Position numbers and translations under genes: made by a program | Source of the DNA: Escherichia coli O157:H7 | GTDB lineage: Bacteria; Pseudomonadota; Gammaproteobacteria; Enterobacterales; Enterobacteriaceae | DNA: 64,000 nucleotides | Strand: one strand, 5' to 3' | Assembly (NCBI RefSeq): GCF_013167455.1 | Contig: NZ_CP038328.1 | Shown: piece by piece, positions 38,469 to 47,173 of the stretch | How the letters are laid out: every line of letters starts with the position of its first letter | How positions within the stretch are numbered: the first letter of the stretch is position 1 | The notes under the pieces: model-generated | What the model was told of the DNA's origin: nothing | Databases searched by the model: none | Seen by the model: only the letters and a program-made list of their open reading frames with translations

Positions 38469-39410
38469 ATGTTAGACAATGTTTTAAGAATTGCCACACG
38501 CCAAAGCCCACTTGCACTCTGGCAGGCACACTATGTCAAAGACAAGTTGATGGCGAGCCATCCGGGCCTGGTCGTTGAACTGGTACCGATGGTGACGCGC
38601 GGCGATGTGATTCTTGATACGCCGCTGGCGAAAGTCGGCGGAAAAGGCTTATTTGTAAAAGAGCTGGAAGTCGCGCTCCTCGAAAATCGCGCCGATATCG
38701 CCGTACATTCAATGAAAGATGTGCCGGTTGAATTCCCGCAAGGTCTGGGCCTGGTCACTATTTGTGAGCGTGAAGATCCTCGCGATGCCTTTGTGTCCAA
38801 TAACTATGACAGTCTGGATGCGTTACCGGCAGGCAGTATCGTCGGGACGTCCAGTTTACGTCGCCAGTGCCAACTGGCTGAACGCCGCCCGGATCTGATT
38901 ATCCGCTCCCTGCGCGGCAACGTCGGCACTCGCCTGAGCAAACTGGATAACGGCGAATACGATGCCATCATTCTTGCCGTAGCCGGACTAAAACGTTTAG
39001 GTCTGGAGTCCCGCATTCGCGCCGCGTTGCCACCCGAGATTTCTCTTCCGGCGGTAGGACAAGGTGCAGTCGGTATTGAATGCCGCCTTGATGATACACG
39101 CACTCGCGAGCTGCTTGCCGCGCTGAATCACCACGAAACTGCACTGCGCGTTACCGCAGAACGCGCCATGAATACCCGTCTCGAAGGTGGATGTCAGGTG
39201 CCAATTGGTAGCTACGCCGAGCTTATTGATGGCGAAATCTGGCTGCGTGCGCTGGTCGGCGCGCCGGACGGTTCGCAGATTATTCGCGGTGAACGCCGCG
39301 GTGCGCCGCAAGATGCCGAACAAATGGGGATTTCGCTGGCAGAAGAGCTACTGAATAACGGCGCGCGCGAGATCCTCGCTGAAGTCTATAACGGAGACGC
39401 CCCGGCATGA
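38469..39410 (+). CDS. hemC: Porphobilinogen deaminase (hydroxymethylbilane synthase)
   Basis: Start at [20 protein letters not shown] (313 aa); recognised HemC. Confidence 0.95.
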
Positions 39411-40147
39411 GTATCCTTGTCACCCGCCCGTCTCCCGCTGGAGAAGAGTTAGTGAGCCGTCTGCGCACACTGGGGCAGGTGGCCTGGCATTTTCCGCTGA
39501 TTGAGTTTTCTCCGGGTCGACAATTACCGCAACTTGCTGATCAACTGGCAGCGCTGGGGGAGAGCGATCTGTTGTTTGCCCTCTCGCAACACGCGGTTGC
39601 TTTTGCCCAATCACAGCTACATCAGCAAGATCGTAAATGGCCCCGACTACCTAATTATTTCGCCATTGGACGCACCACCGCACTGGCACTACATACCGTA
39701 AGCGGACAGAAGATTCTCTACCCGCAGGATCGGGAAATCAGCGAAGTCTTGCTACAATTACCTGAATTACAAAATATTGCGGGCAAACGTGCGCTGATAT
39801 TACGTGGCAATGGCGGTCGTGAGCTAATTGGGGATACCCTGACGGCGCGCGGTGCTGAGGTCACTTTTTGTGAATGTTATCAACGATGCGCAATCCATTA
39901 CGATGGTGCAGAAGAAGCGATGCGCTGGCAATCCCGCGAGGTGACGACGGTCGTTGTTACCAGCGGTGAAATGTTGCAGCAACTCTGGTCGCTGATCCCA
40001 CAATGGTATCGTGAGCACTGGTTACTACACTGTCGACTATTGGTCGTCAGTGAGCGTTTGGCGAAACTCGCCCGGGAACTGGGCTGGCAAGACATTAAGG
40101 TCGCCGATAACGCTGACAACGATGCGCTTTTACGGGCATTACAATAA
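39407..40147 (+). CDS. hemD: Uroporphyrinogen-III synthase
   Basis: 246-aa ORF overlapping the hemC stop by 4 bp; hemCDXY operon order. Confidence 0.9.
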
Positions 40148-40168: not shown

Positions 40169-41428
40169 ATGACGGAACAAGAAAAAACCTCCGCCGTGGT
40201 TGAAGAGACCAGGGAGGCCGTGGACACCACGTCACAACCTGTCGCAACAGAAAAAAAGAGTAAGAACAATACCGCATTGATTCTCAGCGCGGTGGCTATC
40301 GCTATTGCTCTGGCGGCGGGCGTCGGTTTGTATGGCTGGGGTAAACAACAGGCCGTCAATCAGACCGCCACCAGCGATGCCCTGGCTAACCAACTGACGG
40401 CATTGCAAAAAGCCCAGGAGAGCCAAAAAGTCGAGCTGGAAGGCATTATTAAGCAACAAGCTGCACAGCTTAAGCAGGCGAATCGTCAGCAAGAAACGCT
40501 GGCAAAACAGTTGGATGAAGTCCAACAAAAGGTCGCCACCATTTCCGGCAGCGATGCTAAAACCTGGCTGCTGGCTCAGGCCGATTTTCTGGTGAAACTC
40601 GCCGGACGGAAGCTGTGGAGCGATCAGGACGTCACGACCGCTGCAGCGTTGCTGAAAAGTGCAGACGCCAGCCTGGCGGATATGAATGACCCGAGTCTGA
40701 TTACCGTTCGTCGGGCAATTACCGATGATATCGCCAGCCTTTCTGCAGTATCGCAGGTGGATTATGACGGCATCATCCTTAAGCTTAATCAGCTTTCAAA
40801 TCAGGTAGATAACCTGCGTCTGGCCGATAATGACAGCGATGGTTCGCCGATGGATTCCGACGGTGAAGAGCTTTCCAGTTCCATCAGCGAATGGCGTATC
40901 AATCTGCAAAAAAGCTGGCAGAACTTTATGGACAACTTCATTACGATTCGCCGTCGTGATGACACCGCCGTACCGCTGTTAGCGCCAAATCAGGATATCT
41001 ATCTGCGCGAAAATATTCGCTCTCGCCTGCTGGTCGCAGCACAAGCTGTACCGCGTCACCAGCAAGAGACTTATCGCCAGGCGCTGGAGAACGTCTCCAC
41101 CTGGGTACGTGCTTACTACGATACTGATGATGCCACCACCAAAGCGTTCCTCGACGAGGTAGACCAGTTAAGCCAGCAAAATATCTCGATGGATCTTCCG
41201 GAAACCCTGCAAAGCCAGGCGATGCTGGAAAAACTGATGCAGACTCGCGTGCGTAACCTGCTGGCACAACCGGCAGCGGGGACAACGGAAGCTAAACCTG
41301 CACCTGCACCTGCACCTGCACCTGCACCTGCACCTGCACCTGCACCTGCACCTGCACCTGCACCTGCACCTGCACCTGCACCTGCACCGCAAGCTGATAC
41401 TCCGGCAGCCGCGCCGCAAGGAGAATAA
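40169..41428 (+). CDS. hemX: HemX membrane protein, with (Pro-Ala)15 tract near the C-terminus
   Basis: 419-aa ORF with N-terminal membrane anchor and coiled-coil region; recognised as HemX; longer than the ~393 aa I recall for K-12 because of the PA repeat. Confidence 0.9.
41297..41386 (+). repeat. Perfect hexanucleotide tandem repeat (CCTGCA)x15 within hemX
   Basis: 15 uninterrupted copies of cctgca, in frame, encoding (PA)15. Confidence 0.95.
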
Positions 41429-41430
41429 CC

Positions 41431-42627
41431 ATGCTAAAAGTGTTATTGCTCTTTGTGTTGCTGATTGCGGGGATCGTGGTTGGCCCGATGATTGCCGGTC
41501 ATCAGGGTTATGTGCTGATCCAGACCGACAACTACAATATCGAAACCAGCGTCACGGGCCTGGCGATCATATTGATTCTGGCGATGGTAGTGCTGTTTGC
41601 CATTGAGTGGCTACTGCGGCGGATCTTCCGCACTGGCGCGCACACCCGTGGGTGGTTTGTCGGGCGTAAGCGTCGCCGTGCACGTAAGCAGACCGAACAG
41701 GCGCTGCTGAAACTGGCGGAAGGCGATTATCAGCAAGTTGAAAAGCTGATGGCGAAAAATGCCGATCACGCTGAACAACCGGTGGTGAACTATCTACTGG
41801 CTGCCGAAGCCGCGCAACAACGTGGTGATGAAGCGCGCGCCAACCAACATCTGGAACGCGCAGCGGAGCTGGCCGGCAATGACACCATTCCGGTAGAAAT
41901 CACCCGTGTACGTCTGCAACTGGCCCGTAATGAAAACCATGCTGCACGCCACGGCGTGGATAAGCTGCTGGAAGTTACGCCACGCCATCCGGAAGTATTA
42001 CGTCTGGCGGAACAGGCGTATATCCGCACAGGTGCATGGAGTTCGCTGCTGGATATTATCCCATCAATGGCGAAAGCCCATGTTGGTGATGAAGAACATC
42101 GTGCAATGCTGGAACAACAGGCATGGATTGGCCTGATGGATCAGGCGCGTGCCGATAACGGTAGCGAAGGTTTGCGTAACTGGTGGAAAAACCAAAGCCG
42201 GAAAACGCGTCATCAGGTAGCGTTGCAGGTGGCAATGGCGGAACATCTTATTGAATGTGACGATCATGATACTGCCCAGCAAATTATCATCGATGGCCTG
42301 AAACGCCAGTACGACGATCGCCTACTGCTGCCGATTCCTCGACTGAAAACAAACAATCCGGAACAGCTGGAAAAAGTGCTGCGCCAGCAAATCAAAAACG
42401 TCGGCGATCGCCCGCTGTTGTGGAGCACACTGGGCCAGTCACTGATGAAGCACGGAGAATGGCAGGAAGCATCGCTCGCCTTCCGCGCAGCGCTGAAACA
42501 ACGTCCGGACGCCTACGATTACGCATGGCTTGCCGACGCGCTGGACAGACTGCACAAGCCGGAAGAAGCTGCAGCGATGCGTCGCGACGGTTTGATGTTA
42601 ACGTTGCAGAACAACCCACCACAGTAG
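41431..42627 (+). CDS. hemY: HemY (TPR-containing inner-membrane protein)
   Basis: 398-aa ORF starting 2 bp after the hemX stop; recognised HemY. Confidence 0.95.
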   Translation: MLKVLLLFVLLIAGIVVGPMIAGHQGYVLIQTDNYNIETSVTGLAIILILAMVVLFAIEWLLRRIFRTGAHTRGWFVGRKRRRARKQTEQALLKLAEGDYQQVEKLMAKNADHAEQPVVNYLLAAEAAQQRGDEARANQHLERAAELAGNDTIPVEITRVRLQLARNENHAARHGVDKLLEVTPRHPEVLRLAEQAYIRTGAWSSLLDIIPSMAKAHVGDEEHRAMLEQQAWIGLMDQARADNGSEGLRNWWKNQSRKTRHQVALQVAMAEHLIECDDHDTAQQIIIDGLKRQYDDRLLLPIPRLKTNNPEQLEKVLRQQIKNVGDRPLLWSTLGQSLMKHGEWQEASLAFRAALKQRPDAYDYAWLADALDRLHKPEEAAAMRRDGLMLTLQNNPPQ

Positions 42628-46510: not shown

Positions 46511-46587
46511 TGGTCGGCGAGAGAGGATTCGAACCTCCGACCCACTGGTCCCAAACCAGTTGCGCTACCAAGCTGCGCTACTCGCCG
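46511..46587 (-). tRNA. proM: tRNA-Pro (anticodon UGG)
   Basis: Reverse complement = CGGCGAGTAGCGCAGCTTGGTAGCGCAACTGGTTTGGGACCAGTGGGTCGGAGGTTCGAATCCTCTCTCGCCGACCA; full cloverleaf, encoded CCA. Confidence 0.95.
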
Positions 46588-46629
46588 AAATACTGCTTTT
46601 TGAATTTTTAGTTCAATTCTTTAAAGTCG

Positions 46630-46716
46630 TGGTGCGAGGGGGGGGACTTGAACCCCCACGTCCGTAAGGACACTAACACCTGAAGCTAGCGCGTCTACCA
46701 ATTCCGCCACCTTCGC
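46630..46716 (-). tRNA. leuT: tRNA-Leu (anticodon CAG), copy 1
   Basis: Reverse complement = GCGAAGGTGGCGGAATTGGTAGACGCGCTAGCTTCAGGTGTTAGTGTCCTTACGGACGTGGGGGTTCAAGTCCCCCCCCTCGCACCA. Confidence 0.95.
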
Positions 46717-46735
46717 ATTGTCACAACTTCTAATA

Positions 46736-46812
46736 ATGGGGTGGCTAATGGGATTCGAACCTCCGACCCACTGGTCCCAAACCAGTTGCGCTACCAAGCT
46801 GCGCTACTCGCC
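46736..46812 (-). pseudogene. Hybrid pseudo-tRNA: tRNA-Pro 5' portion fused to tRNA-His 3' portion
   Basis: Minus-strand sequence is identical to proM from the 5' end through the 5' T-stem (CGGCGAG...GGGUCGGAGG) and then continues as the hisR T-loop, 3' T-stem and 3' acceptor strand (UUCGAAUCCCAUUAGCCACCCCA); the acceptor stem (CGGCGAG vs UAGCCACC) and T-stem (GGAGG vs CCCAU) cannot pair. Confidence 0.85.
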
Positions 46813-46854
46813 GAAATACTGCTTTTTGAATTTTTAGTTCAATTCTTTAAAGTC

Positions 46855-46941
46855 GTGGTGCGAGGGGGGGGACTTGAACCCCCACGTCCGTAAGGACACT
46901 AACACCTGAAGCTAGCGCGTCTACCAATTCCGCCACCTTCG
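46855..46941 (-). tRNA. leuT: tRNA-Leu (anticodon CAG), copy 2
   Basis: Identical to copy 1; part of the tandem duplication. Confidence 0.95.
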
Positions 46942-46962
46942 CATTGTCACAACTTCTAATAA

Positions 46963-47039
46963 TGGGGTGGCTAATGGGATTCGAACCCACGACAACTGGA
47001 ATCACAATCCAGGGCTCTACCAACTGAGCTATAGCCACC
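46963..47039 (-). tRNA. hisR: tRNA-His (anticodon GUG)
   Basis: Reverse complement = GGTGGCTATAGCTCAGTTGGTAGAGCCCTGGATTGTGATTCCAGTTGTCGTGGGTTCGAATCCCATTAGCCACCCCA. Confidence 0.95.
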
Positions 47040-47096
47040 ACTACAAATCTTGTTACGCGGTATTACTACCACCGCAGCTCAAGCGCCGGGACTAAA

Positions 47097-47173
<77 letters not shown>

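Follow-up and report, generated by a model that had tools for sequence, protein, structure and literature searches.

The hexamer repeat of hemX in Escherichia coli O157:H7 is the typing locus CVN014 and encodes a length-variable Pro/Ala tail of HemX

Described VNTR loci and the identity of the hemX repeat

The generic E. coli MLVA scheme was reportedly set up by Lindstedt et al. in 2007 as GECM-7, with CVN014 among its loci, and is said to have been widened to GECM-10 by Lobersli et al. in 2012. CVN014 serves for the sub-typing of ESBL-producing and Shiga-toxigenic E. coli, and more often than any other locus it splits MLVA profiles which are otherwise identical. It has been ranked first for variability or polymorphism (PMC3877011); among non-O157 STEC it was the most polymorphic locus, where 9 alleles covering 4-15 units gave a Nei value of 0.83 (PMC3519732). 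The largest variation was also observed at CVN014 in a further study (range 2-12), where a three-locus mini-scheme was built around it (PMC5217547), and within ST131 most of the single-locus variants fall at this locus (PMC3407997). No gene name for CVN014 is given in the MLVA papers found.

Other 6-bp VNTRs are known in the same organism: TR3, TR4, TR7, O157-3, O157-10, O157-37, and Vhec are likewise hexamers, are specific to O157:H7 and belong to the PulseNet, Noller, Keys, and Lindstedt MLVA schemes. During serial passage, 6-bp O157:H7 VNTRs gained or lost whole units at rates of 4.4e-5 to 1.8e-3 per generation, and alleles above 13 units changed faster (PMC3777172). The locus described below lies outside the nine O157:H7 VNTR loci studied there. 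The putative sequences of 16 O157-specific PulseNet MLVA primers had no site in the window with up to 4 errors allowed, and the hemX repeat is probably not one of these markers.

The window, i.e., the whole stretch of 64 kb of E. coli O157:H7 DNA analyzed here, carries hemX together with its neighbors (Table 1). Direct reading of positions 41100-41600 gave 15 unbroken CCTGCA units on the plus strand, all of them perfect, and Tandem Repeats Finder placed the array at 41296-41388 (period 6, 15.5 copies, 100% matches, score 186). No other repeat array in the 64-kb window exceeds about 2 copies, so that the tract is far beyond chance. It is in frame within the 419-aa ORF and codes for (Pro-Ala)15, corresponding to HemX residues Pro377-Ala406, after which the translation has 13 more residues and then the stop codon. 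The sequence-only reading had described a perfect (CCTGCA)x15 array at 41297-41386, in frame near the 3' end of hemX, and the sequence, Tandem Repeats Finder, and the ORF all bear this out. A minus-strand ORF at 41168-41419 (83 aa, (Arg-Cys)n) is the reverse-frame image of the hemX repeat and was rejected as a gene.

The two CVN014 primers listed in Table 1 of PMC8143711 match the window exactly, are convergent and are unique in it, where 0 matches are expected by chance. The amplicon which they delimit in the window (41273-41473) is 201 bp long, of which 201 - 90 = 111 bp are non-repeat; the published rule, whereby the number of repeats equals (product size - 111)/6 (PMC8143711), gives (201-111)/6 = 15. 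The primers, the 6-bp unit with its 111-bp offset and the polymorphism among E. coli all agree, and there is no sequence-level difference between CVN014 and the locus in the window: the hemX repeat is CVN014, a VNTR of the generic E. coli MLVA scheme, and the window carries allele 15. Literature searches for a repeat in hemX found nothing on this locus, the only mention of hemX in the VNTR literature found being an unrelated Salmonella SNP. The placing of CVN014 in the C-terminal Pro-Ala tail of HemX, by means of the primer matches, is thus an assignment made here. The proposal that the repeat could serve for strain typing was right as far as suitability is concerned, although it was not a new idea, since the locus is already CVN014 and has been in routine use since 2007. 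The tract is real, highly variable, and already known under that name; what is added here is its location in the HemX C-terminal tail and a range of 0-25 units in complete genomes, vs. 2-15 in the typing studies cited.

Table 1. Positions in the window of the hemX repeat, the CVN014 primer sites and the surrounding features.
Feature	Position	Strand	Basis
hemD, neighbor on the other side of hemX from hemY	39407-40147		ORF list
hemX CDS, 419 aa; stop codon TAA at 41426-41428	40169-41428	+	ORF, PF04375, NF008173
Predicted single TM helix of HemX, about residues 35-57	40271-40339	+	Hydrophobic stretch in the translation
CVN014-R primer site, GCAGCRGGGACAACGGAAGC	41273-41292	+	Exact match; primer in PMC8143711, Table 1
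(CCTGCA)x15 array, variable portion of CVN014	41297-41386	+	Reading, Tandem Repeats Finder, allelic series 0-25
Final 13 codons of hemX before the stop	41387-41425	+	Reading, orthologue alignment
Putative hemY Shine-Dalgarno sequence AAGGAG, overlapped by the final hemX codons	41418-41423		7 nt before the hemY ATG
hemY CDS, 398 aa, starting 2 nt past the hemX stop	41431-42627	+	ORF, RefSeq annotation under the matches
CVN014-F primer site, TCCCCGCAATCAGCAAMACAAAGA, inside the 5' end of hemY	41450-41473	-	Exact match; PMC8143711, Table 1

HemX and its C-terminal tail

The product of hemX scores above the curated cut-offs of both models of the HemX family: PF04375 (HemX) matches residues 130-363 (E=5.7e-108; 360.4 bits against a cut-off of 25.9), and the NCBIfam model NF008173 matches the full length of the protein (E=9e-217; 719.6 bits against 313). 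In a Pfam scan at E <= 0.01 no methyltransferase domain (TP_methylase, as in CysG/CobA) was detected in HemX; the scan gave only HemX, plus two sub-threshold matches to membrane proteins. In RefSeq the product of hemX is named "uroporphyrinogen-III C-methyltransferase". According to a 2008 review, the methyltransferase name stems from a proposal of 1988, and HemX is poorly characterized (PMC2704936). This name looks like a historical misnomer, without domain support.

HemX has been described as a distant homologue of Mic60 that is widespread in Gammaproteobacteria and does not have the C-terminal mitofilin domain, and the ancestral function of Mic60 was perhaps the formation of envelope contact sites (bioRxiv 10.1101/2022.06.14.496148). 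Like the Mic60/mitofilin of alphaproteobacteria and mitochondria, HemX is membrane-anchored and, in a low-confidence model, largely helical, whereas E. coli HemX has the variable Pro-Ala tail where Mic60 has its mitofilin domain. In a CRISPRi study published in 2025, a hemX deletion was less sensitive to gentamicin (PMC12282077). The repeat is mentioned neither in this study nor in the 2008 review or the Mic60 preprint.

The predicted TM helix of HemX is preceded by the basic stretch EKKSKNN, and according to the positive-inside rule the N-terminus would be cytoplasmic and the remainder of the protein, including the Pro-Ala tail, periplasmic. The AlphaFold2 model of HemX, based on a 14-sequence alignment, is of low confidence (mean pLDDT 41, pTM 0.31), too low for comparing folds; it has helices as far as residue 364, one of them at residues 31-63, and no secondary structure after that point. 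A profile search of the PDB sequences with HemX gave no match at E <= 1.

Inter-domain linkers rich in Ala and Pro occur between the lipoyl domains of pyruvate dehydrogenase E2 and in the hinge of OmpA. Their composition is like that of the hemX tract, with alternating Pro and Ala residues, and both are expected to be extended, without any regular secondary structure. The E2 and OmpA linkers join two folded domains, however, whereas no domain is detected in HemX past residue 363. Since the Pfam HemX domain ends at this residue and only 13 residues follow the tract, with nothing folded beyond it, the tract is a variable-length Pro/Ala-rich C-terminal tail of HemX; the initial description of a linker does not hold. 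That the tract is flexible is plausible, and its composition and low conservation, mainly, suggest that the tail is disordered.

In Citrobacter and Salmonella the Pro/Ala tail of the orthologue is short and imperfect and varies in length before the conserved AAPQGE end, as in C. koseri, C. rodentium, C. sedlakii with its variable (AAP) run, and Salmonella. Salmonella HemX has no PA repeat run, its tails being APATQTD or EAPATR. In the 14-sequence HemX alignment the body shows 86% identity per column, length and sequence both vary from residue 368 onward, and residues A413, P416, Q417, G418, and E419 are invariant. Conservation of this end may be due to the DNA, since the codons include the motif AAGGAG, which, at 7 nt before the ATG of hemY, is the putative Shine-Dalgarno sequence of that gene.

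Some further variation was observed in this part of the protein. Of two HemX sequences of C. sedlakii (P0008 and P0010, 400 vs. 394 aa), the longer has two more PAA units, the tails being AAPAPAAPAAPAAPQAE vs. AAPAPAAPQAE, so that another species has a small length-variable repeat of its own at this place. In a Citrobacter-like HemX from JGI (P0088, 435 aa), a frameshift lies inside the Pro/Ala tail and the protein continues into hemY sequence, which reflects either out-of-frame indels in the tail region or a sequencing error in a metagenome contig. An E. coli HemX of 485 aa from ENA (P0001), known from a single contig, carries an internal tandem duplication of 86 aa (HQEETYRQ...TTEAKPA), which could be real or a misassembly. 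The Pro-Ala tract of this protein is short and interrupted (PAPAPAPTPAPAPAP); it was considered as a very long VNTR allele and rejected, its length being due to the 86-aa duplication.

Copy number across E. coli and within the O157:H7 lineage

The 701-nt region around the tract, used as a query, matched 5,425 of 5,426 complete E. coli genomes, and the RefSeq annotation at these matches is always hemX and hemY. For the survey, 60 records evenly spaced down the ranking of the 5,425 matching genomes were taken; most of the copy numbers were obtained from alignment spans, and 10 sequences, including the window, were read letter by letter. The spans in the 60 records differ by multiples of 6 nt and correspond to 2-13, 15, and 17 units, i.e., to 14 repeat alleles (Nei diversity 0.90), one further record having a different deletion. 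Copy number is therefore not identical across E. coli, with 14 alleles and a deletion in a sample of 60 out of 5,425, in agreement with the high polymorphism that the typing studies found at CVN014. With a query carrying 30 units as bait, the longest alleles were retrieved, and the spans among the matches listed imply up to 25 units.

Nine loci were read directly, namely those with 2 (K-12), 5, 7, 17, 17, 18, 23, and 25 units and the deletion in NCTC11023, so that with the window the alleles confirmed by reading are 0, 2, 5, 7, 15, 17, 18, 23, and 25 units. Every repeat run read (2-25 units) is perfect. The hemX CDS of the K-12 derivative is 1182 nt long (393 aa) and has 2 CCTGCA units; the earlier estimate of a protein about 26 residues longer than K-12 HemX is exact (419 vs. 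393 aa; 15 vs. 2 units). In NCTC11023 (locus L002, NZ_LS483297.1) the tract is gone, owing to a 27-nt in-frame deletion relative to K-12 which takes out both PA units plus PQADTPA. In the 180 records listed, the length offset from the window is a multiple of 6, with the exception of one 27-nt in-frame deletion, and among the E. coli records examined no frame-breaking hemX allele was found, whether read or implied by the span. The expectation that the copy number varies in 6-nt steps which keep the frame was thus confirmed, over a range of 0-25 units across complete genomes. HemX proteins of 384-439 aa are repeat alleles and not distinct proteins, which calls for caution in annotation and protein clustering.

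For the O157:H7 lineage, the two 1,500-nt flanks of the window were joined without the repeat and used as a query, and the 60 best-ranked genomes were taken (59 of O157:H7 type and one O55:H7). Both flanks, amounting to 3 kb, are 100% identical to the window in all 60. The commonest alleles have 6 units (15 genomes), 7 (17), and 8 (12), followed by 9 (5), 10 (3), 11 (3), 12 (3), 16 (1), and 17 (1). Nine alleles of 6-17 units, most often 6-8, are therefore present on a substitution-free 3-kb background in these best-ranked genomes, the query being blind to alleles of <=5 units, since BLAST bridges such gaps and ranks those records lower. The presence of nine alleles without any substitution in 3 kb indicates that change in the array far outpaces the accumulation of point mutations. 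The copy number is the same among close relatives: strain 86-24 and its two NADC derivatives have 6 units each, as do three FRIK isolates, and SS17 and SS52 have 8 units each, from which it can be concluded that the locus is stable over short descent. Since O157:H7 genomes with identical 3-kb flanks differ at CVN014, the marker is informative but prone to homoplasy at the outbreak scale. The 15 units of the window are a long allele for this lineage.

Origin of the variation and alternative explanations

Loops of 6 nt are expected to escape efficient MutS-dependent repair in E. coli, and CCT is a non-preferred proline codon in this species. The CVN014 tract is a hypervariable in-frame VNTR that is useful as a marker; very probably its variation arises by slippage and the Pro/Ala tail that it encodes is near-neutral in length. 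During replication, the perfect CCTGCA units would misalign by slipped-strand mispairing, with the gain or loss of whole units, and the resulting 6-nt loops would be too large for efficient MutS-dependent mismatch repair. As the unit consists of two codons, each change would add or remove Pro-Ala pairs and never shift the frame. HemX would thus end in a Pro/Ala tail of varying length, past the HemX domain and presumably in the periplasm, and with little or no constraint on its length the variation would amount to near-neutral mutational noise.

Replication slippage in a perfect hexamer array is the most likely origin of the alleles, judging from the one-unit steps, the perfect arrays at all the lengths read and the many alleles found on identical flanks, and also from the similar behavior of the published 6-bp VNTRs of O157:H7. 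The perfection of every array is what would be expected if slippage keeps homogenizing it, and the CCT codons of the tract fit an origin by slippage rather than by selection on translation. The repeat unit holds the self-complementary tetranucleotide TGCA, and for the repeat as RNA a long but imperfect hairpin with UGCA:UGCA stems is predicted (-58.8 kcal/mol, z = -2.05), although 6 out of 200 shuffles fold equally well. One may speculate that a similar structure in the DNA favors slippage. This hairpin, 40 nt ahead of the start of hemY, and the non-preferred CCT codons might conceivably also influence how hemX or hemY is expressed. The least secure step of the mechanism is the neutrality of the tail, whose length looks near neutral in view of the breadth of the natural alleles (0-25 units).

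The length of the tail might instead be functional and under selection, the Pro-Ala tract acting as a semi-rigid, adjustable rod that sets the reach of the periplasmic C-terminus of HemX, e.g., toward the peptidoglycan or the outer membrane, with a length that lineages could tune. This reading is unlikely. It accords with the description of HemX as a distant homologue of Mic60, for which a part in envelope contact sites has been suggested (bioRxiv 10.1101/2022.06.14.496148), and with the invariance of the AAPQGE end in Escherichia, Citrobacter, and Salmonella, whereby the tract separates two conserved elements; yet this conservation can be explained at the DNA level by the codons of the hemY Shine-Dalgarno sequence, and Salmonella does without the PA repeat run. 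Typical lengths also differ between lineages, with 6-8 units in O157:H7, 2 in K-12, and mostly 4 to 6 in ST131, depending on the study (PMC3407997, PMC3877011). However, alleles of 0-25 units coexist and nine different lengths are found in a single clone whose flanks are identical, a pattern that is better explained by drift at a hypermutable site.

It is quite unlikely that the tail length is non-neutral in a wider sense, either setting the reach of the HemX C-terminus or modulating the translational coupling of hemY, with reversible slippage as a "rheostat". If this were true, slippage would provide E. coli lineages with a heritable and reversible means of adjusting a haem- or envelope-related function.

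That the repeat is a contingency (phase-variation) locus, or that it regulates hemY through mRNA structure or translational coupling, is very unlikely. A repeat that ends 44 nt before the hemY ATG, in a gene separated from hemY by 2 nt, and that is predicted to form the hairpin mentioned above is well placed for such an effect, but the z-score is modest, the 6 equally well-folding shuffles out of 200 count against it, and the hairpin would be unwound by the translating ribosome. Phase variation would involve a shift of the reading frame or of promoter spacing; with a 6-nt unit and with all the sampled alleles in frame, the hemX repeat gives no on/off switch. Taken jointly, the adjustable rod and the effect on hemY keep a small but appreciable probability, and neither is required by the observations.

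That an error of assembly or sequencing produced the 15 copies, the true allele being shorter, is hardly credible: assemblers can mis-size perfect repeats, and 15 units are unusual where most of the sampled O157:H7 genomes have 6-8, but the tract is only 90 nt long, well inside one read, the 701-nt sequence of the window is 100% identical in the O157:H7 strain Z885, the spans imply 15 units in Z887, Z1626, and CEC13002 (the last sequenced independently), other O157:H7-type genomes have 16, 17, and 18 units, and PCR fragment sizing has given CVN014 alleles of up to 15 units (PMC3519732).

Elsewhere in the window, a tRNA cluster was observed on the minus strand at 46511-47173, with the order Arg(CCG)-His(GTG)-Leu(CAG)-Pro(UGG)-Leu(CAG)-Pro(UGG). 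It includes a perfect 226-bp tandem duplication (46525-46987) by which the Leu-Pro tRNA pair is doubled. The query covering this tRNA region had 289 records in the band of >=99% identity. In a sample spread over E. coli genomes, the full 1001-nt match was found in only two records, both of O157:H7, while 27 others span about 775 nt, i.e., 226 nt less, and 1 is partial; the leuT-proM duplication thus looks specific to the O157:H7 lineage.
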